A DNA stretch of 64,000 nt from an uncultured SAR86 cluster bacterium (GTDB lineage Bacteria; Pseudomonadota; Gammaproteobacteria; Magnimaribacterales; D2472), in contig CACADH010000001.1 of assembly GCA_902531245.1 (NCBI GenBank), positions 18,490-82,489 on the forward strand, given 5' to 3'. A model generated the notes under the pieces. It did no database searches. It was given only the letters and a program-made list of their open reading frames with translations, and was not told where the DNA came from. The translations under genes and the position numbers were made by a program. Numbering within the stretch: position 1 is the stretch's first letter; each line of letters opens with the position of its first letter. Shown piece by piece: positions 34,617 to 45,947 of this stretch.

Positions 34617-34904
34617 ATGCCAAAAGGTTACTGGGTTGTAAGAGCAAATATTCATAATCAGGATGAATATTCTAAATATGTTTTAAAAGCTTCAGAAATA
34701 GTTAAAAAGAATTCTGGAACTTTCCTTGTAAGAGGCGGAAAGCAAACAGAATATGAGACAAAGGGATATAAAAGAACAGTTATTGTTGAATTCGATTCAT
34801 ATCAACATGCAATAGATTGTTATAACTCAGAAGAATATCAATCAGCTCTCAAACATGTTGAGGATTCATCTAATAGAATTTTTACTGTAGTAGAAGGAGT
34901 TTAA
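34617..34904 (+). CDS. DUF1330 domain protein
   Basis: 95 aa with PKGYWVV...Y...GTFLVRGG...VIVEFDSYQHAIDCYNSEEYQ, characteristic of DUF1330 (dimeric alpha/beta barrel). Confidence 0.8.
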   Translation: MPKGYWVVRANIHNQDEYSKYVLKASEIVKKNSGTFLVRGGKQTEYETKGYKRTVIVEFDSYQHAIDCYNSEEYQSALKHVEDSSNRIFTVVEGV

Positions 34905-36043
34905 ACTTTTTGTTTTTGAGTTTCGTCTCTATGTTTCTTTAAATATTTCATAAATGGAGTTCCGCCAGTCCCTCTTATAGTAGAACCGCCTGTACCAAAA
35001 GTATTTTTTATTTGTGCTTGTTTATGAATATAAGATGCTGCATATTCAAGATGTTGAGCTCTAAACTTTCTTATCTCTTCCAAACAAAGATTATACTCAT
35101 TCATTAATTTTTTAGATTTACTAATAAATTCTTTTGCATTTGACCTTTTTTCAACATCTTCAATCATCTTTCGATGTTTGGGAGGCATATAATCCCTCAT
35201 CTCATTTAAATAATGTCTCAAATTATCATTAGTATGATAAATACCAAGAGCTCCATCGAGTAATGGTATTATGCTGCTCTGTGCTCCAGTTTCTCCTCTA
35301 AAAAACTGTGGTTTATTATTAAACTGACCCTCATAAATTAAACCCTTTTTTAAGTCTGGATTATCTTTTGTGCCAAATATATAAGGTCTTACCCTATGAT
35401 AGTAAATATATGGATCACATTTTTCAGGCATTCTCGAAAAAATATTATTAACTTTTTTTAATGATTTAGATATTTTTTTAAGATAAATTGAAAAATCTTT
35501 TATTTTATGTTGCCTACTTAATTTTGATAACTTGATTGCTGCATCAATCGCTTCACTAGCAGCGTCTTCTATGCAAACATGGATTGTTACAAACCAGTCT
35601 TCATCAACACCTCCAAGAAAGTTATTGATTAGTGCCACATTATCTAAAGATATAGGTTCTTTGTTATCAATCTTATACCAGTTATCAAGACAATAACTTG
35701 CATAACTGAGAATAGGAGGTCTTCCAAGATATTTAGATAAAGTTACCCAGGGTTTAGCAATAACTTCAGGAAGTAATTTTTCAGGTTTATTACCACCCCA
35801 AATATATGCATGGGCAATAAAGCTTAAATGCGACATAGCAAGTTTAATTTCTTTTTCTTTTTTATTTTTTACAAGATAGTCAACAGATAAACTATTTTTA
35901 TTTAATTTTTTGATGGTAGTTTGAACCTTATTTGTTAAGAGCAACTTTGGAAGACGAGACGCAATTAAACCTATTTTTAATAACGAATCTCTCTTAGTTC
36001 TGTATTTTTTAACAGGAGGATTTCTCGGTAAAAAAGTGTACAT
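34901..36043 (-). CDS. Indoleamine 2,3-dioxygenase (IDO) family haem protein
   Basis: [61 protein letters not shown] and [19 protein letters not shown] align motif-for-motif with human IDO1, including the proximal His. The start is ambiguous (36043, 36064 or 36085). Confidence 0.85.
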   Translation of the reverse strand: [380 protein letters not shown]

Positions 36044-36129
36044 ATTTATATATATTTTATACATATAAATAGAAATAAATACCAATTTTTTATTTCATAA
36101 AAAAACTATAACTTTTTTTCAAAAAAGTG

Positions 36130-36157
36130 TTGACAAGATTTCTAGTAGGAGTAATAT
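36130..36157 (+). promoter_or_regulatory. Sigma70 promoter of the repeat-encoded RNA (TTGACA-16 nt-TAATAT), preceded by an A/T-rich UP-like tract
   Basis: Perfect -35 hexamer at 36130-36135 and a -10-like TAATAT at 36152-36157. The 12-bp palindrome AGTAATATTACT (36150-36161) overlaps the -10. Confidence 0.6.
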
Positions 36158-36164
36158 TACTAAT

Positions 36165-36385
36165 ACGGATGGCAACCGACTAGTGACCAACTGCAGACGG
36201 GAGACCTAGAGAGAAGCCAGAAGAAGAGACCGAAGGGTGAAAGCATTTACAAGAGTCGATGAGAAAAAATAGCTTGTAGATCCACCAAGGATTCAAGAGA
36301 AAGGATCCAAGGCGCTAAAGAAAATCTCACTTTAGACCCCTGAGGAATCGAACTAAGAAAACAGAGCAAGCCTCTGTTTTTTTTT
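36165..36385 (+). ncRNA. Candidate structured small RNA of unassigned family, copy 1 (~221 nt)
   Basis: It lies between its own promoter and the terminator ACAGAG-caagc-CTCTGT plus T9 (36361-36385). It is purine-rich and GC-richer than its surroundings, with no ORF above ~11 codons. Local stems: TACAAG/CTTGTA, GATCC/GGATC and CTAAAG/CTTTAG. The 5-prime end is inferred from the promoter only. Confidence 0.55.
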
Positions 36386-36477
36386 GCCTAAAATTTCTTT
36401 AAAACCATAAAACTTTATTACAAAGAAGCATTTATAAATTGGTACAATATGCCTTAAATTCAAATACATAGGGAAAT

Positions 36478-38043
36478 ATGTTTAATACTTTAGATTGGAT
36501 AATCGTTGGATTATATTGTGTTGGGATAATTTCATTAGCAACATATGTATCAAGAAATAAATCAGGTTCAGAAAGAAGTGCAGAGGATTATTTTTTAGCA
36601 GGAAGATCTCTCCCATGGTGGGCAATTGGCGCATCATTAATTGCTGCTAATATTTCTGCAGAACAAATTATTGGGATGTCAGGTCAAGGATTTGTTGTTG
36701 GTATGGCAATAGCAGTTTGGGAGTTAACTGCTGCGATAGCTTTAATTGTTATGGCTAAATATTTTTTACCTTTATTTTTAGAAAAAAAGATTTATACAAT
36801 GCCACAATTTCTAGAGCAAAGATTTGATAAAAGAGTAAGCTTAGTCTTATCTTTCTTTTGGCTGACTGTTTATATATTTGTTAATTTAACAGCAGTGCTT
36901 TGGTTGGGATCAATAGCAATTAATACACTTACAGGATTATCCCTAGTAAACGGAATGATTTTGCTTGCAGCTTTATCATTAGCATACTCTTTATCAGGCG
37001 GTCTTAAAGCTGTCGCAATGACAGATATTGTTCAAGTAGTTCTTCTTATTTTTGGCGGCTTAGCAGTTTCATACATCGCTTTAACAAAAATTGGTAATGG
37101 ATATATTGGAGATGGAATGCTTGAAGTTTATCAACAGATGCCTGAAAAGTTTGACATGATTTTATCACCAGATAATCCCTCCTATAACAATCTTCCTGGA
37201 ATATGGATTTTAATTGGAGCTGGAGTTTGGATAGGTCATTTTGCATATTGGGGATTTAATCAATACATTACACAAAGAGCTCTTGGGGCAAAATCTATTA
37301 AAGAGGCTCAAAAAGGCGTTATGTTTGCAGCTTATTTAAAACTGCTAATGCCATTGGTGATTGTTCTTCCAGGTATTTGTGCAGCTGTTCTTTTCCCAGT
37401 CCTTGAGAAAACAGATCAAGCATACCCAACTATGATGATTGAATTATTGCCAAGTGGTTTATTAGGTTTAACTTTTGCTGCTTTAATTGCAGCAGTTGTT
37501 TCTTCATTAGCATCGATGACAAACAGTATAAGTACAATTTTTACAATGGATATATGTAGATCATTTTCTAAAAATGAAATATCTCAATCTTCATTAATTA
37601 AAATTGGTAGAAGTTCAGTTGTAGGATCTATGTTGATTGCTTTAGTAATGGCAAAACCAATTCTTGGAAACTCAGACCAAATATTTCAATATATTCAAAA
37701 TTTTACCGGATTATTTACACCTGGAATTTTAGTAATATTTTTAGTTGCTTTATTTTGGAAAAAAGCGACAACTCTTTCTGTGTTAATTGCAGCAATTCTC
37801 TCTGTTGTAATGTCTGTTTTCATTCAGGCATTATTTCCAGAATTTCCTTACATCCATAGAATGGGTGCAGTTTTCTTTGCCTCTGGCTTAGGATGCTATT
37901 TAACTTCTCGAGCTCAAGGATATTTAGATCAAGAAAAGGCAATAGATTTAGCTGGGATAGATTTTTCAACTACCAAAGCCTTTAATATAAATACATTAAT
38001 AATCGTATCTGTATTAACTTTAATTTATATAACTCTAGGATAA
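36478..38043 (+). CDS. Sodium:solute symporter (SSS family, SGLT-like)
   Basis: 521 aa with 13-14 TM helices and FLAGRSLPWWAIGASLIAANISAEQIIGMSG, typical of SSS sugar transporters. Confidence 0.9.
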   Translation: MFNTLDWIIVGLYCVGIISLATYVSRNKSGSERSAEDYFLAGRSLPWWAIGASLIAANISAEQIIGMSGQGFVVGMAIAVWELTAAIALIVMAKYFLPLFLEKKIYTMPQFLEQRFDKRVSLVLSFFWLTVYIFVNLTAVLWLGSIAINTLTGLSLVNGMILLAALSLAYSLSGGLKAVAMTDIVQVVLLIFGGLAVSYIALTKIGNGYIGDGMLEVYQQMPEKFDMILSPDNPSYNNLPGIWILIGAGVWIGHFAYWGFNQYITQRALGAKSIKEAQKGVMFAAYLKLLMPLVIVLPGICAAVLFPVLEKTDQAYPTMMIELLPSGLLGLTFAALIAAVVSSLASMTNSISTIFTMDICRSFSKNEISQSSLIKIGRSSVVGSMLIALVMAKPILGNSDQIFQYIQNFTGLFTPGILVIFLVALFWKKATTLSVLIAAILSVVMSVFIQALFPEFPYIHRMGAVFFASGLGCYLTSRAQGYLDQEKAIDLAGIDFSTTKAFNINTLIIVSVLTLIYITLG

Positions 38044-38049
38044 TTTTTT

Positions 38050-39894
38050 ATGAAAAAATTCCTTTCAATATTGTTGTTCAACGTTTCTATTTTGGCTAAT
38101 ACAGATTGGTCCAATCCCAATGAATGTGTCTTACCAGATCACTCTAAGTTTATTAAAAGCATGGTTAATGGAATGACATTGGAACAAAAAGTAGGCCAAA
38201 TAATAATGCCTGAAATTAATAGCGTCACTCCTGAAGAGGCAAAAAGATTTCATTTTGGAACTATTTTAAATGGTGGTGGAGGTTTTCCAAATCAAAATAA
38301 AGACAGTGATATACAAGACTGGAAAAATTTAAGTAAAAATTACTTTGACGTTTCTACAGAGGTTAATGGAATTAAGATTCCAATATTATGGGGTACTGAT
38401 GCTGTTCATGGACATAATAATGTTATTGGAGCAACTATTTTTCCTCACAATATCGCTTTGGGTGCAACAAGAAATCCTAAGCTTATACAGAAAATTGGAA
38501 GCGCTGTAGCAAAAGAGGTTGCGTCTACTGGAATTATTTGGACATTTGCACCAACCATTGCTGTACCCCAAAATGATTTATGGGGCAGAACTTATGAAGG
38601 GTATTCTGAAAATACTCAATTAGTTACTGAGCTTGGTAGAAATTTCATTCTAGGGTTGCAAGGAATAGATAAAAACTTTTTAGATAATGATCATGTATTA
38701 GCTACAGCAAAACATTTTATCGGAGATGGTGGCACTGACAGGGGTATTGATCAAGGAAATACTATTGTTAATGAAGATACTTTAAAGAGCGTTCATGGAG
38801 TTCCTTATTATGCAGCAATTGACTCTTGTGCTTTGTCAGTAATGGCGACCTTTAATTCATGGAATGGTGTAAAAACTCATGGTAATAAATATCTCTTAAT
38901 AGAGGTTTTAAAGTCACAAATGGAATTTAATGGTTTTATAGTTGGTGACTGGAATGGTCATGGTCAAATACCTGGTTGTGAAGATGCAAACTGTCCTAAA
39001 GCATTTAATGCAGGTGTAGATATTTATATGGTTCCACAAGAATGGGAACCATTGTATTGGAATACTCTTGATCAGGTAAGAAATGGAATTATTACAGAAG
39101 AAAGACTTGATGATGCAATTACTAGAATTTTAACTGTTAAAAAATATCTTGGATTATTTGATGGCAGGGTCCCTCATATTTATAAGCAAAATTATATAGG
39201 CATCTCAGACCACAGAGATCTTGCAAGACAAGCTGTAAGAGAATCTATAGTATTACTAAAAAATAATAATTCTTTACCAATGAACCCATCTAAGAAATTT
39301 TTAGTAGTTGGAGAAATGTCTAAATATATTGAGAATCAAATGGGTGGATGGACAATAACTTGGCAAGGTAAAACCTGGGAAGGTACAAAGATATCAAATG
39401 ATGACTTCCCTAACACAAATAGTATTTATGAGTCTTTATCAAACCACGTCGAAGAATTTGGCGGAAATATTGAGTTTTCTGAAGATGGTTCATACACAAT
39501 CAAACCTGATTATGTAATTTTTGTTTATGGTGAAACACCATATGCAGAAGGTGAGGGAGATATTAATAACCTCAATTTTTCAAAAAATAATAAAGAAAAC
39601 ATCCAAAAAATGAAGCTTTTCCAAGAGAAAGGTATCTCAGTAATTTCATTGTTTATTTCTGGAAGACCAATGATTACTGATAAAGAGATCCAATACTCAG
39701 ATGCTTTCGTACCTATATGGTTACCAGGCACTGCTATTGAAGGAATAAATGATGTAATTTTTAGTAAGCTTGATGGCTCTATTAATTATGATTTTAAAGG
39801 TAGATTATCTTTTTCTTGGCCCGCACAAGATTCTGAAACTCCCTTTAATTATTCTCCATTATTTCAATATGGATATGGACTAACTTACGAATAA
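38050..39894 (+). CDS. Periplasmic glycoside hydrolase family 3 beta-glucosidase
   Basis: 614 aa with a signal peptide, MTLEQKVGQ, GTDAVHGHNNV, KHFIGDGGT, and GFIVGDWNG holding the nucleophile Asp. Confidence 0.92.
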   Translation: MKKFLSILLFNVSILANTDWSNPNECVLPDHSKFIKSMVNGMTLEQKVGQIIMPEINSVTPEEAKRFHFGTILNGGGGFPNQNKDSDIQDWKNLSKNYFDVSTEVNGIKIPILWGTDAVHGHNNVIGATIFPHNIALGATRNPKLIQKIGSAVAKEVASTGIIWTFAPTIAVPQNDLWGRTYEGYSENTQLVTELGRNFILGLQGIDKNFLDNDHVLATAKHFIGDGGTDRGIDQGNTIVNEDTLKSVHGVPYYAAIDSCALSVMATFNSWNGVKTHGNKYLLIEVLKSQMEFNGFIVGDWNGHGQIPGCEDANCPKAFNAGVDIYMVPQEWEPLYWNTLDQVRNGIITEERLDDAITRILTVKKYLGLFDGRVPHIYKQNYIGISDHRDLARQAVRESIVLLKNNNSLPMNPSKKFLVVGEMSKYIENQMGGWTITWQGKTWEGTKISNDDFPNTNSIYESLSNHVEEFGGNIEFSEDGSYTIKPDYVIFVYGETPYAEGEGDINNLNFSKNNKENIQKMKLFQEKGISVISLFISGRPMITDKEIQYSDAFVPIWLPGTAIEGINDVIFSKLDGSINYDFKGRLSFSWPAQDSETPFNYSPLFQYGYGLTYE

Positions 39895-39896
39895 TT

Positions 39897-40796
39897 ATGA
39901 ATAGGGCTTTATTGGTAGATGTTGGTGGGACCAATATGAGATACGCACTAGCAAATTATTCAGATGATGATCTATCAGATATAAATAAAATACCTTTCGA
40001 TCATGAAAAATTTGAAAATTTTATTGAAGAAATAATCGATACCAACGATGTGGATACATTAATAATATCAATTGCAGGCCCTAAAATTAACAATACTATA
40101 ACAATGACTAATAGGGCTTATACTTTTGATGCAGATAATATTAAGAAAAAATTTAACTTAAAAGAATGTGTTCTTTTAAATGATTGGGAGGCAATAGCCC
40201 ATAGCTATGATTTTATTTCTAATGACATTTCGTATATTAAGTCAGGATCAAAATTTAATGATGTAAAGTTATTTTTAGGACCTGGAACTGGACTAGGAGC
40301 TGCCATATCTGTTGGAAATAAAATTGTACTTCCAACAGAAATTGGCAATACAAATAATTCAAATTCTTTTCTGCAAAGAAACTACAATCTTAAAAATAAT
40401 GAAGATCTTATTTTAGAGGACTTAGTTTCAGGTTCGGCTATATCTAAAATCTATCAATCAAAAACAAACCTTAAATTAACATCAGAAGAGATTTATAAAA
40501 AGTATATTGATAAAGATGATAATGCAATTGAAGTTATAGAAGGTTTTATAAAAGCTTTAGGAGAAACATTATCTGATTTAGCACTCACTTTTATTCCAGG
40601 AGACGGGATTTTACTAGCTGGCAGTCTAATAAGATCTATTTACTCTAGTATAAATAAAGACGAATTTAATGAAGTCTTTATTGGTAAAAAAAATGATGTA
40701 CACAAAGAAATGCTAGATATGATCTCAATCGGAGTAATTACAAAAGAAAAAACTCCACTGTATGGCAATTTTAGTTTATTTAAAAAACTTAACTAA
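39897..40796 (+). CDS. glk: Glucokinase
   Basis: 299 aa with LLVDVGGTNMRYAL and LGPGTGLG. It directly follows the GH3 gene. Confidence 0.8.
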   Translation: MNRALLVDVGGTNMRYALANYSDDDLSDINKIPFDHEKFENFIEEIIDTNDVDTLIISIAGPKINNTITMTNRAYTFDADNIKKKFNLKECVLLNDWEAIAHSYDFISNDISYIKSGSKFNDVKLFLGPGTGLGAAISVGNKIVLPTEIGNTNNSNSFLQRNYNLKNNEDLILEDLVSGSAISKIYQSKTNLKLTSEEIYKKYIDKDDNAIEVIEGFIKALGETLSDLALTFIPGDGILLAGSLIRSIYSSINKDEFNEVFIGKKNDVHKEMLDMISIGVITKEKTPLYGNFSLFKKLN

Positions 40797-40839
40797 ATAG
40801 CCATAAATTTAGAAAGTTTGTGTATAATTTGCAACCAAT

Positions 40840-41034
40840 ATGGCTGATAAAAAACAAACCAAAGTATATTTAATTCCTGAAGATGAGACTAGAGATAGTC
40901 ATACATATCATTACACAGCTATTAAAACTAGAAAGTTCACTCTTGAAAATAAAAAAATGCGTTTAAAAAAATTTAATCCTGTTAAAAGAGTTCATGAGTG
41001 GTTTGTTGAAGCAAAGCTTCCGCCTCACAATTAA
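40840..41034 (+). CDS. Divergent ribosomal protein bL33-like protein
   Basis: 64 aa. HTYHYTAIKTRK...KKMRLKKFNPVKRVHEWFVEAKL aligns with E. coli L33 HFYTTTKNKR...[23 protein letters not shown]. It is not adjacent to rpmB. Confidence 0.6.
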   Translation: MADKKQTKVYLIPEDETRDSHTYHYTAIKTRKFTLENKKMRLKKFNPVKRVHEWFVEAKLPPHN

Positions 41035-42137
41035 TTCTTAGTCAACCTAATTGCTGTTGATGATATATCATCTCTAAAGGTATTTTCTTCAATACCAGTA
41101 CATCTATCCTTGATTAATTCAGGCACTTTTATTTTATCTAGTGAAATGAATCGTTTATTTACTTTTCTTCCGAATACCAAAAAGTTAATATTGTGATCAT
41201 TAAATCTTTGGATATGTTCCATCATATCTTTGTAATTTTTATAAAATTTCTCATCAAATACTCGCAATAATGTATCTGCCCCAATTATAAAAACTGAGTT
41301 AGGAAACATTTCTGCTTTTTCACTAAATCGCCCTGCTGAGGTTAACATCCAGCTTTCATCATTTTGAAATTGATCAATTGTTTTTTTTATTTCATAAAAA
41401 GTTAATGGCGGTTTATCTGCGTTTTTTGCGCAGATTTCAAATGTAGTATGCATACCAGTTTTTTTCTCAGCTAATTCTTTCATTTTTATATGTCCCTCGT
41501 GAAGAGGGTTAAAAGATCCAGGGAAAATAAGTTCAGGGTTATTTTTGTTATTAGAAATGTAACCCACCTTATTATTGAATAGTTTTTCCCATGGTTTTTC
41601 AGCATCGACTTGATCAATAACAATCTCTTCCTTAATGGAAGGAAGGTCAAAATCAAATCCACATGAATTTGCTAAAAGGCTAATAACACATCCAGTAATC
41701 AACTCTTCCTCTTCTTCCCTTGTTCTTTTACCCTTATCTAAATAACACTCTAGATGTTTTGTGTAGTTATAAGCTTGTATGACTATAAAAAATTTATGGT
41801 CTCCTTTTTTTTCATAAGTGGTTGCTAGATTTGCTGTAATAGCAACTCCAATAAGATATTTGCTTTTAGACTCATTATCAATCTGTTTTGACTTTTTAAA
41901 CGCATTTGCTGCCATGCTAAGACATGTTTCTAAAGAGCAATAATGATCTGGTTTTTTATTTAAAAATGAATCCATAGATTCTTTAGAATAGGGGATGTAT
42001 GACTCCAATATTGTATTACTTGCTCCTGGAACTTTTAATAGAGCTGAAATAGCATTTGTTCCTCCACCACTAGAAACGATCGTCAATTTATATGGCGAAG
42101 AATGGATCTTGTTTACGATTTTTAAGTATTTTTTCAA
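41031..42137 (-). CDS. Fusion protein: CinA/PncC-like domain plus NMN/NaMN adenylyltransferase-like (cytidylyltransferase) domain
   Basis: 368 aa. The N-terminal SSGGGTNAISALLKVPGASNTILESYIPYSKES matches the PncC pattern TAESCTGG...GSS...Y-S-E. The C-terminal half has GSFNPLHEGH (HxGH) and ISSTAIR. Confidence 0.7.
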   Translation of the reverse strand: MKKYLKIVNKIHSSPYKLTIVSSGGGTNAISALLKVPGASNTILESYIPYSKESMDSFLNKKPDHYCSLETCLSMAANAFKKSKQIDNESKSKYLIGVAITANLATTYEKKGDHKFFIVIQAYNYTKHLECYLDKGKRTREEEEELITGCVISLLANSCGFDFDLPSIKEEIVIDQVDAEKPWEKLFNNKVGYISNNKNNPELIFPGSFNPLHEGHIKMKELAEKKTGMHTTFEICAKNADKPPLTFYEIKKTIDQFQNDESWMLTSAGRFSEKAEMFPNSVFIIGADTLLRVFDEKFYKNYKDMMEHIQRFNDHNINFLVFGRKVNKRFISLDKIKVPELIKDRCTGIEENTFRDDISSTAIRLTKN

Positions 42138-42200
42138 TTGAGTAAATATTTATATGTTTATTTTAACCCAATAATAAGAATTCATTGTTAGAATAAATTC

Positions 42201-43055
42201 ATGAAGATCATAAATTACGTAATCTGTATTTTACTACTCGTTTTTGCTTATGATCTCGAATCAAATCCAATCAATAAAGTAACTTATGCGTTATGGGATA
42301 AGCCAGATGTTGATATTTCTTATACTTTACCAAAAGAAATAAATAAAGATACTAAGGTTTTATTTATTATTCATGGCCAATCCAGAGATATAAAAAAATA
42401 TTTAAATCTATGGCTTGATGCTTCAAATAATAAAAATGTAATTTTAGTTGCACCTCATTTTAAAAAAGAAAATTATCCTTACTTTGCAACTTTAGAGACA
42501 GCAACCTCATCTGGAAAAGTATTAAATAATCAATCTAATAATTTAAGAGATTCGATATCTTCTTTTTACAACTATTTCCAGAGCAAATATGACCTTAAAA
42601 CTTCTACGTATTTAATATTTGGTTTTTCTGCTGGATCTCAATTTGTTCATAGGTATTTAATGTATGGCGAAGACACCAGGGCTGAGAAAGTAGTTCTTGG
42701 AAGCGCTGGTTGGTATACCTTTTTAAATAATGAAAAATTTCCATATGGCACTAGAAATATGCCTATTGAAAGATCCCGTTATGAGTGGTTTTTATCTAGA
42801 CAGGTCTTATTTATCCTTGGAGCTCAAGATGACGATGAAGACCATGCGACTCTAAATACAAGTCGTGGTGCAAGAAAGCAGGGCGATCATAGATATCAAA
42901 GAGGCCAGAATTACTTTAAATCACTAATAAATTTTGGAGAAAAACATAGCATACCTTTTAGATGGAGATATAAAGTAGTGCTTGATTTAGATCATAGCAC
43001 TGAGGCTATGACTAAAGAGGCCATTCCTTTTTTACTTGAAGGACTTGATTATTGA
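42201..43055 (+). CDS. Secreted alpha/beta hydrolase
   Basis: 284 aa with a signal peptide, LFIIHGQSRD and the nucleophile elbow GFSAGSQF. Confidence 0.6.
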   Translation: MKIINYVICILLLVFAYDLESNPINKVTYALWDKPDVDISYTLPKEINKDTKVLFIIHGQSRDIKKYLNLWLDASNNKNVILVAPHFKKENYPYFATLETATSSGKVLNNQSNNLRDSISSFYNYFQSKYDLKTSTYLIFGFSAGSQFVHRYLMYGEDTRAEKVVLGSAGWYTFLNNEKFPYGTRNMPIERSRYEWFLSRQVLFILGAQDDDEDHATLNTSRGARKQGDHRYQRGQNYFKSLINFGEKHSIPFRWRYKVVLDLDHSTEAMTKEAIPFLLEGLDY

Positions 43056-43058
43056 TAA

Positions 43059-44555
43059 CTAAGTTGTATTTTTTTCAATAAATTCTTCTGCTTTCATAAA
43101 GATCATTTTTTTTCTATCTTTTTCCATTTTAGCTAGTGACCTAGTCATAACAGATAATCTTGGGTTTGATTCAAAAAATTTAATATTTTTATCAATAAAC
43201 TTCCAATACAAACCATCAACAATATCGCACCATTCACCTTTTTTATAATTTGACATTCTGAGCATGTAACTTGAACCACAGATATATGGTTTTGTCGAAA
43301 AAATACCGCCATCTGCATAAGATCCCATTCCATAAACATTAGGAACCATGACCCAATCATATGAGTCTATATACATTTCCATAAACCATTTATACATTTC
43401 ATTTGGATTGATCCCAGATAGATTCATTAGATTTGCAATAATCATTAATCTATTAATATGATGTGAATAAGCAAATTCTTCTGATTCTTTAATAGCATCA
43501 TCCAATGGAGGTATTCCAGTATTACCTGTATACCAATTTTCATTTAACTTTCTTTTATGAGACCAAAAATTTAAATTTTTGTATTGTGGCATATTTTCCC
43601 AATACACTCCCTTTATAAATTCTCTCCATCCTAGAATCTGTCTTATAAAACCTTCAACTGAATTTATAGGGATTTTACCTTTTGATTTGTTGTATTTTGT
43701 TATAGCTTTTTCTATGCATAACAATGGATCTAACAGACCACAATTAAGGTAGGGTGATAATAAAGAATGAAACATAAAAGTATTATCTTTGTTTATTGCA
43801 TCCTGAAATGCACCATAATTTTCAAGATATCTATCTAGAAAATCGTCTAAAAGAATCTCTGCATCTTCGTGAGAAGTTGCCCAATTAAAATTTTCTAAAT
43901 TGCCTACAGATTTTGGAAAACACTCTTCAACATCAACCATAGCATCAAAGGTAATTTGATCTGGTTTTATTTTTTTACGTCTTGGTATATCAGATTTAAG
44001 TTGCGATATTCCTTTTCTATTATCTTTATCGAAATTCCACTTATCACCAATAGGTTTATTTTCATCAGTCATAAATATGTTGTATTTTTTTCGAAGCCAT
44101 CTGTAATAATATTCTTGGATTCTAGTTTTTTTATCTGATGCCCAATCAGCAAAATCATCAGCACTAGATATAAATTTTTTATCTTCTAGTATTTCTAAAC
44201 CTAGATTATTTGATTGGCAAAAAAACATAAGTTCTTTATTTACTTTATAGTCAGATGGTTTAGAAATAACTATGTTGGTTATCTTATTTTCTTTTATTAT
44301 TTTTTTTAAATAAGAATTAAAATCTAATTTATTTTTTTTAGATATTTTATGATGAATTATATTTTTATGATCAATAGTTTCTATGAAATGTCTAAATGCA
44401 GAGATAATAAAAGTGATTTTTTGTTTATGATGTTTTATTTCGTAAAAGGTATCGATCGGTTCATAAAATAATATCAAATCTTCATTATTTAAATTTAATA
44501 ACACGGGGTTATTAATTGAAAGTTGATCAGCAAAAATAATTCTCAAACATTTCAT
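43059..44555 (-). CDS. Cryptochrome/photolyase-related protein (COG3046 / FeS-BCP-like)
   Basis: 498 aa with SPYLNCGLL, GWREFI and SHHINRLMIIANL...YDWVMVPNVYGM, typical of the photolyase-related CryB/PhrB group. Confidence 0.85.
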   Translation of the reverse strand: MKCLRIIFADQLSINNPVLLNLNNEDLILFYEPIDTFYEIKHHKQKITFIISAFRHFIETIDHKNIIHHKISKKNKLDFNSYLKKIIKENKITNIVISKPSDYKVNKELMFFCQSNNLGLEILEDKKFISSADDFADWASDKKTRIQEYYYRWLRKKYNIFMTDENKPIGDKWNFDKDNRKGISQLKSDIPRRKKIKPDQITFDAMVDVEECFPKSVGNLENFNWATSHEDAEILLDDFLDRYLENYGAFQDAINKDNTFMFHSLLSPYLNCGLLDPLLCIEKAITKYNKSKGKIPINSVEGFIRQILGWREFIKGVYWENMPQYKNLNFWSHKRKLNENWYTGNTGIPPLDDAIKESEEFAYSHHINRLMIIANLMNLSGINPNEMYKWFMEMYIDSYDWVMVPNVYGMGSYADGGIFSTKPYICGSSYMLRMSNYKKGEWCDIVDGLYWKFIDKNIKFFESNPRLSVMTRSLAKMEKDRKKMIFMKAEEFIEKNTT

Positions 44556-44679
44556 ATTATTGTGAATAGAATAGGTGCAATAAAACCATTCTATATTAAT
44601 AAATGCATTTTTTTAAAATACAAAAAATTAATTTTTTATTTTTAACCATTACTTTACTAACTTTATTTATAATCTAACT

Positions 44680-45411
44680 ATGCATTCGTTATATAAATAT
44701 TCATTAATCACCATTTTTCTTATCTCTTGTTCTTCTGAAAATGATAAAGGGGGGATAGAGGCAAATTTATTAATCTCTCCAGATTATCAATTTTCTAGTG
44801 AATTTTTTGAATGCAAATTAAATGACGGTTTTACTTTATTAAATCTAGAATCATTTCTTTCAAGTTTGGTAAGAAAAGAATCAATTAAAAGTGATGGCGA
44901 TTACGATATTGAAGTTTTTTTTCCTAAGTCAAACTATGTAAATGAATTCATACTTAATTTAAAAAATTATTCTATCGATGATATTTACAGCAATTTTTTA
45001 GATGAACTTAGTACAGCAGGTTTTGATGAAATTGCTGGATGTAAATTTGATAAAAATGGATATAAGGGTTTATCAATAATTGATCAAGAATTTAAAGAAC
45101 CTGCTTATGTCAATGAATTATTAAGTTGTAATTATAATGACGGTTTTAACTATGGTACTTTTAGAGTTGCTATTGAAAAGTTTGCTAATGAAATAAATAA
45201 TTTAAAAATACCTTACGAGGTTATTTATTATCAGACTGATAGTTCACCAGGAAGTTTTATTTGGATAAATAATTTCTATTCAAAAGATTTTTCAGATGTA
45301 ATTTCTACAAACTGGATTAACAATCCAGAAGCAAACGAAATAAAGAATGAATTTGAAGAAAATGCATCATGTATTGATGCAAAGATGTACGATGCATTTC
45401 TTATCACATGA
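44680..45411 (+). CDS. Lipoprotein with two tandem Cys-pair domains, same family as 15424 and 30429
   Basis: 243 aa with the lipobox FLISCSS. Both halves carry the family pattern: FFECKLNDGF...AGCKFDKNGY and LLSCNYNDGF...ASCIDAKMYDAF. Confidence 0.55.
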   Translation: MHSLYKYSLITIFLISCSSENDKGGIEANLLISPDYQFSSEFFECKLNDGFTLLNLESFLSSLVRKESIKSDGDYDIEVFFPKSNYVNEFILNLKNYSIDDIYSNFLDELSTAGFDEIAGCKFDKNGYKGLSIIDQEFKEPAYVNELLSCNYNDGFNYGTFRVAIEKFANEINNLKIPYEVIYYQTDSSPGSFIWINNFYSKDFSDVISTNWINNPEANEIKNEFEENASCIDAKMYDAFLIT

Positions 45412-45470
45412 ATAATTAGAATAAATAAGGAGCATATTGGTCTCTTTTTTATTATAATTTCCCGTCTAAT

Positions 45471-45546
45471 GCGGGTGTGGTGTTAACGGCTAGCACAATA
45501 GCCTTCCAAGCTATTGGTACGGGTTCGAATCCCGTCACCCGCTCCA
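45471..45546 (+). tRNA. tRNA-Gly (anticodon UCC)
   Basis: 76-nt cloverleaf: acceptor GCGGGTG/CACCCGC, anticodon stem ATAGC/GCTAT with loop CTTCCAA, T-arm ACGGG-TTCGAAT-CCCGT, encoded CCA. Confidence 0.93.
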
Positions 45547-45602
45547 ATAAAAGTCCATAAAAATCTTTATAAAAAAAACTATAACTTTTTTTCAAAAAAG
45601 TG

Positions 45603-45630
45603 TTGACAAGATTTCTAGTAGGAGTAATAT
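45603..45630 (+). promoter_or_regulatory. Sigma70 promoter of the repeat-encoded RNA, copy 2
   Basis: Identical TTGACA-16 nt-TAATAT arrangement to 36130..36157. Confidence 0.6.
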
Positions 45631-45637
45631 TACTAAT

Positions 45638-45858
45638 ACGGATGGCAACCGACTAGTGACCAACTGCAGACGGGAGACCTAGAGAGAAGCCAGAAGAAGA
45701 GACCGAAGGGTGAAAGCATTTACAAGAGTCGATGAGAAAAAATAGCTTGTAGATCCACCAAGGATTCAAGAGAAAGGATCCAAGGCGCTAAAGAAAATCT
45801 CACTTTAGACCCCTGAGGAATCGAACTAAGAAAACAGAGCAAGCCTCTGTTTTTTTTT
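45638..45858 (+). ncRNA. Candidate structured small RNA of unassigned family, copy 2
   Basis: Identical to 36165..36385. No same-strand gene follows: the next gene is convergent. This argues for a stand-alone RNA rather than a leader. Confidence 0.55.
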
Positions 45859-45871
45859 GCCTAAAATTTCA

Positions 45872-45898
45872 TAAAAAAAGCAGGTAAATATACCTGCT
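45872..45898 (-). terminator. Intrinsic terminator of the prepilin peptidase gene (minus strand)
   Basis: AGCAGGTA-aata-TACCTGCT hairpin, followed on the minus strand by T7. Confidence 0.65.
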
Positions 45899-45947
45899 TT
45901 TAAGACCTAGGGGATATGAATCAAGAGGATATTCAAAGGCCTTCTAT

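Follow-up and report, generated by a model that had tools for sequence, protein, structure and literature searches.

The window analysed here is a stretch of 64,000 nucleotides (nt) from an uncultured SAR86 cluster bacterium (contig CACADH010000001.1 of assembly GCA_902531245.1), with a G+C content of 31.5%, which carries two copies of the gene for IMES-1, a structured RNA catalogued in Rfam as RF02034. A repeat search of the window returned a single two-copy family and no other long repeat: the segments 36099-36398 and 45572-45871 form a direct repeat of 300 nt, 100% identical and 9,473 nt apart. The shared sequence extends from 31 nt ahead of a promoter's -35 hexamer to 13 nt past the T-run of a terminator, and the flanks outside the two copies are unrelated (19/40 and 17/37 positions identical); the duplicated segment is exactly one transcription unit. 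The features of the two copies are as follows:

36099-36398, + strand: repeat copy 1, a complete IMES-1 gene with upstream A/T tract, promoter, RNA and terminator (100% match to 45572-45871)
36099-36129, + strand: A/T-rich tract resembling an UP element, upstream of the -35 hexamer (seen in the sequence; homologous copies are alike)
36130-36157, + strand: sigma-70-type promoter, TTGACA-16 nt-TAATAT (10/12 matches in a promoter scan)
36170-36361, + strand: IMES-1 RNA (RF02034), copy 1 (cmscan, model positions 1-191)
36191-36196, + strand: CUGCAG, self-complementary, in the P1a hairpin loop of copy 1; candidate second symmetric contact (invariant in 142/142 distinct homologues)
36255-36260, + strand: GUCGAU, self-complementary hexamer in the 19-nt P3 loop of copy 1; candidate symmetric kissing-loop site (homologue comparison)
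36361-36385, + strand: intrinsic terminator ACAGAG-CAAGC-CTCTGT with T-run, copy 1 (sequence and predicted fold)
45572-45871, + strand: repeat copy 2, a complete IMES-1 gene (direct repeat of copy 1)
45603-45608 and 45625-45630, + strand: promoter hexamers of copy 2 (constant 9,473-nt offset)
45643-45834, + strand: IMES-1 RNA, copy 2 (cmscan, 190.3 bits, model positions 1-191)
45664-45669, + strand: CUGCAG loop palindrome, copy 2 (same sequence as copy 1)
45728-45733, + strand: self-complementary P3-loop hexamer, copy 2 (same sequence as copy 1)
45834-45858, + strand: intrinsic terminator, copy 2 (same sequence as copy 1)

In copy 1 the promoter hexamers are TTGACA at 36130-36135 and TAATAT at 36152-36157, and transcription would start at approximately 36163-36165. 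The arms of the terminator are ACAGAG (36361-36366) and CTCTGT (36372-36377), with a T9 tract that finishes at 36385; this hairpin is present in the minimum free energy (MFE) fold, yet it was left unflagged by a simple terminator scan.

A search of the window with the Rfam covariance models (cmscan) showed that both copies match IMES-1 with 190.3 bits, against a gathering score of 81 (E = 5.4e-43). The match is full-length and untruncated in each case, spanning model positions 1-191 of 191 with all the helices P1, P1a, P2, P3, P4 and P5, and only three non-canonical pairs are seen, one in P1a and two in P2. No competing Rfam family scored better than E = 0.1 in this region at a permissive threshold. 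We also considered 6S RNA, whose covariance model gave no match even at E up to 10, and a small open reading frame as the content of the duplicated unit, and rejected both. The predicted product is an RNA of about 222 nt, in which P1/P1a is followed by a long-range helix, P2, closing a junction of the hairpins P3, P4 and P5. That both units are IMES-1 and free-standing genes is in our view practically certain, and that IMES-1 identity goes along with a free-standing gene acting in trans is very probable.

The duplicated cassette belongs to an already catalogued RNA family and hence defines no new class. IMES-1 was reportedly described in Weinberg et al. 2009, on the basis of marine metagenomes and metatranscriptomes, and as a psRNA group in Shi et al. 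2009; both are said to have found it extremely abundant in metatranscriptomes, which would place it among the most abundant bacterial transcripts of coastal seawater. We know of no function proposed for it and, to our knowledge, its host was not known when it was first described; a literature search, confined to accessible papers, found no mention of IMES-1. The preliminary description of this locus is partly supported. It had recognized two 100% identical same-strand copies at an offset of 9,473 nt, each a self-contained unit of promoter, structured RNA and terminator, and the repeat search agrees, with the hexamers, the hairpin and T9 all at the positions that it gave; its view that the body is a non-coding structured RNA is borne out by the covariance-model match in both copies. 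What falls is the assignment to no known family, which the match to RF02034 overturns, and the idea of a CsrA sponge, which is discussed further below.

Conserved promoters, fold and self-complementary loops

A degenerate IMES-1 pattern run against one genome per GTDB species recovered at least 118 stretches. With the window RNA as an nhmmer query, 97 IMES-1 copies scoring above 50 bits were found in 93 of the 118 stretches listed, while the other 25, which are G+C-richer and come from unrelated taxa, represent chance matches to the pattern. Flank statistics were drawn from 87 homologous copies with full flanks, all of which have an in-register promoter (87/87). The -35 element is exactly TTGACA in 75 of these, the -10 element is TAATAT in 54 and TATATT in 21, and the 40 nt upstream of the -35 element have a mean of 85% A+T with conserved A- and T-runs reminiscent of an UP element. 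At the other end, the terminator T-run is 8-9 long in 85/87 copies. Judging from these signals, every copy has its own near-consensus sigma-70 promoter, A/T-rich upstream tract and intrinsic terminator. Given that the promoter, the gene dosage and the extreme abundance reported in 2009 all fit, expression of IMES-1 is likely to be very high.

To assess the fold we aligned 89 distinct IMES-1 copies with MAFFT (alignment A1) and scored them against the Rfam structure. The cells of this structure are paired in 92.4% of cases, as opposed to 27-53% when the 3' partners are slid, 25/41 pairs show changes on both sides, and the covariation score is 0.361 versus 0.131 +/- 0.004 for shuffled alignments. 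RNAalifold independently finds P3, P4, P5 and the terminator on the same alignment, and both the MFE and the centroid folds of 36164-36385 reproduce the Rfam helices together with the terminator. The five-helix IMES-1 fold is thus well supported by covariation. The three local stems proposed earlier, namely TACAAG/CTTGTA, GATCC/GGATC and CTAAAG/CTTTAG, are real and correspond to P3, P4 and P5 of the Rfam consensus, and compensatory changes keep them across the 89 distinct homologues; P1/P1a and the long-range P2 had been overlooked.

The nucleotides of the junctions and loops are strongly conserved, with peak conservation in the junctions and in loops lacking GGA, which suggests either a compact tertiary structure or many contacts to a partner. 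The six-pair terminator stem, ACAGAG/CUCUGU, is invariant in 89/89 distinct sequences, with a variable loop (A1 columns 210-227); since this exceeds the conservation that an ordinary terminator needs, the 3' hairpin might be part of the functional RNA. RNAalifold additionally pairs CCG at 36176-36178, in the P1 internal loop, with CGG at 36198-36200, on the 3' side of the P1a loop. Here C-to-U changes retain a G.U pair in 15 sequences and eight sequences break the pairing, with changes on one side only; such a pseudoknot is possible but, given the one-sided changes and the breaks, we set it aside as weak.

We then tested each six-column stretch of A1 without gaps for self-complementarity, and two hexamers stand out: the invariant CUGCAG in the P1a loop and a variable hexamer in the 19-nt P3 loop. 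The latter occurs in nine variants and is self-complementary in 88/89 sequences; when treated as three mirror pairs, 99.6% of the cells pair, and sliding the partners by one or two columns lowers this to 8-45%. Its two central, adjacent nucleotides are CG in 70 sequences, UA in 8, AU in 6, GC in 4 and UG in 1. Adjacent nucleotides of one chain are unable to pair with each other. An unbiased metagenome scan, the pattern of which demanded only a non-C third base in the hexamer and left its last three bases free, yielded 87 contigs with 88 IMES-1 copies, and the hexamer proved to be self-complementary in 88/88 of them (GUUGAC 36, GUAUAC 20, GUGCAU 17, GUUAAC 9, GUGCGC 6).

Combining A1 with the metagenome copies gave 142 distinct sequences, in 141 of which the P3 hexamer is self-complementary. 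In this set the central dinucleotide is CG in 70, GC in 21, UG in 21, AU in 17 and UA in 13, and it is unpairable in none. Mapped onto a neighbour-joining tree for which the hexamer columns were masked, it requires approximately 16 parsimony (Fitch) changes, and the CG and GC forms occur together in three clusters of no more than 10% divergence. Mutual information between the two central columns amounts to 1.27 bits, and with any other column it is 0.75 bits at most. GUCGAU, the form in the window, and GUUGAC are self-complementary only as RNA, by means of G.U pairs, and are not palindromes as DNA; a change between GUCGAC and GUUAAC would be expected to pass through GUUGAC as a wobble intermediate. 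Paralogues within a genome share the same hexamer in 14/15 pairs, and the members of the odd pair are still cross-compatible. Nearest-neighbour energies of the hexamer duplexes range from -5.4 to -10.9 kcal/mol.

Host range, copy number and genomic surroundings

The 93 IMES-1 loci are nearly all labelled as SAR86 cluster or merely as Gammaproteobacteria, and derive from single amplified genomes (SAGs) and metagenome-assembled genomes (MAGs); the carriers among the matches listed include SAR86A, SAR86B and the chromosome-level sequences CP097973.1 and OX044367.1. The window itself is 97.7-98.6% identical to SAG AG-325-P20 of SAR86, in line with the marine gammaproteobacterial host surmised at the outset, and 95.3% identical to SAG AG-404-A04. 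The IMES-1 of AG-325-P20 is identical to that of the window over 234 nt, so that a public single-cell genome of SAR86 already contained the window sequence of this RNA. Besides SAR86 SAGs and MAGs, the sources of the homologues are the 87 metagenome contigs, which are marine wherever the name states the source. Full-length copies (169-195 bits) also occur on contigs of 38-43% G+C labelled Porticoccaceae (GTDB genus HTCC2207), SAR92 and Woeseiaceae (L013 2586-2775, L114 5512-5701, L094 3933-4125 and L107 6170-6362), including a 316-kb long-read contig with 43% G+C, which implies that IMES-1 is not strictly confined to SAR86. Provided that these labels are right, IMES-1 is also found beyond SAR86, perhaps in lineages that have cultured members. 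A phage origin was considered and dropped: among 2.9 million viral contigs of IMG/VR there were five matches to the pattern, all by chance, and cmscan found IMES-1 in none of them.

Among 82 copies with a neighbouring gene within 600 nt downstream, this gene is co-oriented in 46 and convergent in 36. As downstream genes are convergent about as often as they are co-oriented, IMES-1 is a free-standing gene and not a 5' leader. Both arrangements are found in the window, where a co-oriented SSS symporter gene follows copy 1 at a distance of 117 nt and copy 2 faces a convergent prepilin-peptidase gene. Directly 3' of copy 2, between an A-run and a T-run, we noticed a further hairpin, GCAGGTA-AATA-TACCTGC, at 45871-45903; it looks like a bidirectional terminator that might also serve the prepilin-peptidase gene. 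On its other side, copy 2 is preceded by a tRNA-Gly(TCC) gene (45471-45546), which ends 25 nt before it; the vicinity of this tRNA gene revealed neither an integrase nor a direct repeat of its 3' end.

We examined 15 two-copy genomes, in which the RNA cores of the paralogues are 90-100% identical and homology stops at about -74 and just past the terminator. The cores are identical in the window, in the closed chromosome OX044367.1 and in CACNUA01. Four genomes have tandem IMES-1 pairs approximately 300 nt apart, each member with its own promoter and terminator. The main locus is syntenic, and comprises malate synthase G, a 95-aa protein, optionally an indoleamine-2,3-dioxygenase (IDO)-like gene on the opposite strand, IMES-1, optionally pyruvate kinase (pyk), and an SSS symporter or aceE; secondary copies adjoin oxaloacetate decarboxylase genes, a CinA/NMNAT-like gene or others. 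Neighbours thus recur from the phosphoenolpyruvate-pyruvate-oxaloacetate-malate node, namely malate synthase G, pyruvate kinase, aceE and the alpha and beta subunits of oxaloacetate decarboxylase (neighbour families F0, F3, F7, F9 and F14), which may be a weak lead towards central carbon metabolism, or a coincidence. In 29 relatives the pyk gene begins about 70 nt after the IMES-1 match; no pyk is found downstream of IMES-1 in the window. Between the IMES-1 terminator and pyk there is a conserved promoter-like site, TTGCAA-N17-T(T/A)AATAT, ending roughly 7-12 nt before the ATG (loci L007, L053, L045, L014, L009, L049 and others), which suggests that the pyk mRNA of those relatives could be leaderless or nearly so.

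The block between the two copies in the window (36399-45571, 9.4 kb) holds the SSS symporter, a GH3 glycosidase, glucokinase, a CinA/NMNAT-like gene, a photolyase-related gene and tRNA-Gly. SAG AG-390-J15 has a lone IMES-1 flanked by the IDO-like gene on one side and the genes for prepilin peptidase and GGT on the other, with the block missing from that position. Conversely, locus L096 has the block with the left copy only, and L103 is alike over the visible part of the block. It looks as though the block was gained or lost via recombination between the repeats, and the second identical copy probably stems from a recent duplication or gene conversion in the lineage of the window. The exact protein encoded by 44680-45411 is present on two short metagenome contigs, which end inside or just before tRNA-Gly, short of IMES-1, and so neither confirm nor deny copy 2; the exact GGT protein beside copy 2 had no record elsewhere, which is silent on that copy.

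On the other side of copy 1, the alignment of SAG AG-325-P20 (L105, approximately 98% identical) skips 34931-35964, about 1 kb inside the IDO-like gene (34901-36085, - strand), so that the IDO-like gene beside IMES-1 is a presence/absence polymorphism among near-identical genomes. IMES-1 is often situated at contig ends, as at both ends of ARRL01000002.1 (L010/L058), in L055, L083, L098 and L102, and on many metagenome contigs. Because near-identical repeats break short-read assemblies at IMES-1, the copy numbers in draft SAR86 genomes are probably too low.

Possible self-association and comparison with known systems

Covarying adjacent loop nucleotides back the symmetric intermolecular kissing loops seen by cryo-electron microscopy in the OLE and GOLLD RNAs (Kretsch et al., PMC12286853), and it is the presence of this same signature in the P3 loop that leads us to propose self-association of IMES-1. 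The RNA probably acts in trans rather than as a leader, and the additional identical copy would raise the dosage of a very highly expressed RNA. In the proposed self-association, the P3-loop hexamer would mediate a symmetric kissing-loop homodimer. The invariant CUGCAG in the P1a loop is a possible second interface, and the two together could give rise to a higher oligomer. IMES-1 might then serve a partner, in a stoichiometric manner, as scaffold or decoy. We consider the chances of self-association through the P3 loop to be evenly balanced; the fuller version, in which the RNA self-assembles through both symmetric interfaces into dimers, rings or chains, is put forward tentatively, at somewhat below even chances.

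Several observations weigh against these proposals. Self-association is read from the sequence, and the analysis points to no partner or phenotype; the transcript ends and the abundance of IMES-1 are likewise predictions. The invariance of CUGCAG (142/142) places its pairing beyond the reach of a covariation test. The case for the kissing loop draws on just eight or nine types of hexamer, several of which form weak duplexes with G.U ends (-5.4 to -6.8 kcal/mol), and the count of Fitch changes depends on a neighbour-joining tree whose sequences are short and may have recombined. Finally, the folding energy of the single sequence 36164-36385 is unexceptional (z = -1.53), and two of the six P2 pairs in the window copy are G.A mismatches.

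The alternative that survives best, although improbable in our estimate, is that IMES-1 is an Hfq- or ProQ-dependent base-pairing small RNA with a conserved seed, or that it titrates Hfq through ARN-rich stretches like CrcZ. Such a role would be consistent with the intrinsic terminator and its U8-9 tail, with purine-rich stretches compatible with (ARN)3, such as AGAAGAAGAGAC at 36215-36226 and AAGAGAAAG in the P4 loop, and with the invariant loop AAAAUCUCAC, which could serve as a seed. However, ARN triplets are expected in any purine-rich sequence, and conservation extends along all of the 190 nt and includes covarying helices as well as invariant junctions, a pattern that argues for a folded functional RNA rather than a seed plus scaffold. 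E. coli CsrA, Hfq, ProQ and SmpB used as tblastn queries gave no match in the window and the 118 loci (0.94 Mb, not whole genomes), a result which for hfq and proQ is uninformative about whole genomes. A dependence on Hfq or ProQ would in any case be compatible with dimerization of IMES-1, and the two are not exclusive.

A sponge of the CsrB/RsmZ type, whose GGA motifs bind and sequester CsrA dimers, had been suggested in the preliminary description and fairly rated as weak there; we regard it as very unlikely. It gains some plausibility from the RNA being purine-rich, probably abundant and paralogous, from neighbouring genes of central carbon metabolism, a classical theme of the CsrA regulon, and from the CAAGGAU of the window copy, which resembles the core of the CsrA ligands obtained by SELEX (systematic evolution of ligands by exponential enrichment). 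Yet the number of GGA motifs per RNA (mean 5.1, range 2-9) is that expected from base composition, as had been recognized for the five motifs of the window copy. Among the 142 homologues a single GGA position is more than 90% conserved; it is located in a junction instead of a hairpin loop and reads GGC in the window copy. The strongest conservation resides in junctions and non-GGA loops. A sequence resembling a GacA box (up to three mismatches) is found in just 21/87 of the A/T-rich upstream regions without a conserved position, in agreement with the earlier remark that no upstream box of the GacA/UvrY type is present. That no csrA was found in the 0.94 Mb of SAR86 DNA is a weak point, as these are partial genomes.

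Still less probable is a cis-acting leader or riboswitch that uses the terminator as its platform and controls the SSS symporter in the window or pyruvate kinase in many relatives. The 117-nt distance of copy 1 from the co-oriented symporter, the start of pyk about 70 nt after the match in 29 relatives and the aptamer-like appearance of a multi-helix junction with invariant bases would all suit such a reading. Gene orientation already speaks largely against it, with a convergent downstream gene in 36/82 copies and no co-oriented gene downstream of copy 2; it is further countered by the tandem pairs, in which each member has its own promoter and terminator, by the terminator stem, which is invariant and for which no alternative antiterminator pairing was seen, and by the separate promoter-like TTGCAA-N17-TAATAT that stands between the terminator and pyk in relatives. 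Least credible of all is that copy 2 arose as an artefact of assembly, or that the unit is mobile or selfish and not a cellular gene. In favour of this are the perfect identity over 300 nt, the frequent position of IMES-1 at contig ends (e.g. both ends of ARRL01000002.1) and the tRNA gene next to copy 2, as integration at such genes is common. On the other hand, both copies are bordered left and right by unique sequence within one contig, SAR86 genomes normally have at least two copies, closed chromosomes included, the boundaries show no terminal inverted repeats or target-site duplications, no transposase or integrase lies nearby, IMES-1 was not found in the 2.9 million viral contigs, and the main locus is syntenic across the clade.

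A free-standing, possibly self-associating RNA is the reading that we carry forward. To the catalogued family this analysis adds a SAR86 host, an own promoter and terminator, a multi-copy organization, synteny and the signature of a self-complementary loop. The window and some 90 related loci place IMES-1 on SAR86 chromosomes as a gene that is amplified in dosage, strongly promoted and free-standing, and the covarying self-complementary loop offers a first concrete hypothesis, open to bench testing, for how it works.

With regard to known systems, the window copies are members of IMES-1 (RF02034) and not look-alikes, given the 190 bits, the presence of all helices and the marine origin, and they show no structural difference from it. 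CsrB, RsmY and RsmZ resemble IMES-1 in being abundant, multi-hairpin, paralogous and purine-rich RNAs with an intrinsic terminator, but IMES-1 differs in that it has no conserved arrays of loop GGA motifs and no GacA/UvrY box, and in that its conservation lies in the junctions. 6S RNA (SsrS) is a very abundant trans-acting RNA of about 200 nt that works stoichiometrically on a protein machine, as proposed for IMES-1; it is a long rod with a central bubble, whereas IMES-1 is a multi-hairpin junction without an Rfam 6S match. The dimerization initiation site (DIS) of HIV-1 is a 6-nt self-complementary kissing loop flanked by purines, the natural variants of which stay palindromic (GCGCGC, GUGCAC). 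It has in common with IMES-1 a self-complementary loop hexamer, but in the DIS this lies in a 9-nt loop and serves the packaging of a viral genome, while the loop of IMES-1 has 19 nt; the likeness is a mechanistic analogy only.

A further parallel is provided by OLE, GOLLD and ROOL, RNA-only homo-oligomers held together by symmetric kissing loops (PMC12286853), which, like IMES-1, are orphan and highly structured bacterial RNAs. Shared with IMES-1 are loop palindromes in which the adjacent central nucleotides covary: GGCC changes to GAUC or AGCU in L9.3 of OLE and GC to CG in L21a of GOLLD (PMC12286853), and CG to GC, UA, AU or UG in P3 of IMES-1. IMES-1 is far smaller (approximately 190-220 nt as against 600-800 nt) and bears no relationship to them in sequence or covariance model; it resides on the chromosome of a marine bacterium that is streamlined and free-living, and its putative oligomers are deduced from sequence, while those of OLE and GOLLD have been seen. 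Should the proposal prove true, RNA-only quaternary structure, so far found in the large OLE, GOLLD and ROOL, would extend to an RNA of about 200 nt from a heterotroph that ranks among the most abundant in the surface ocean.

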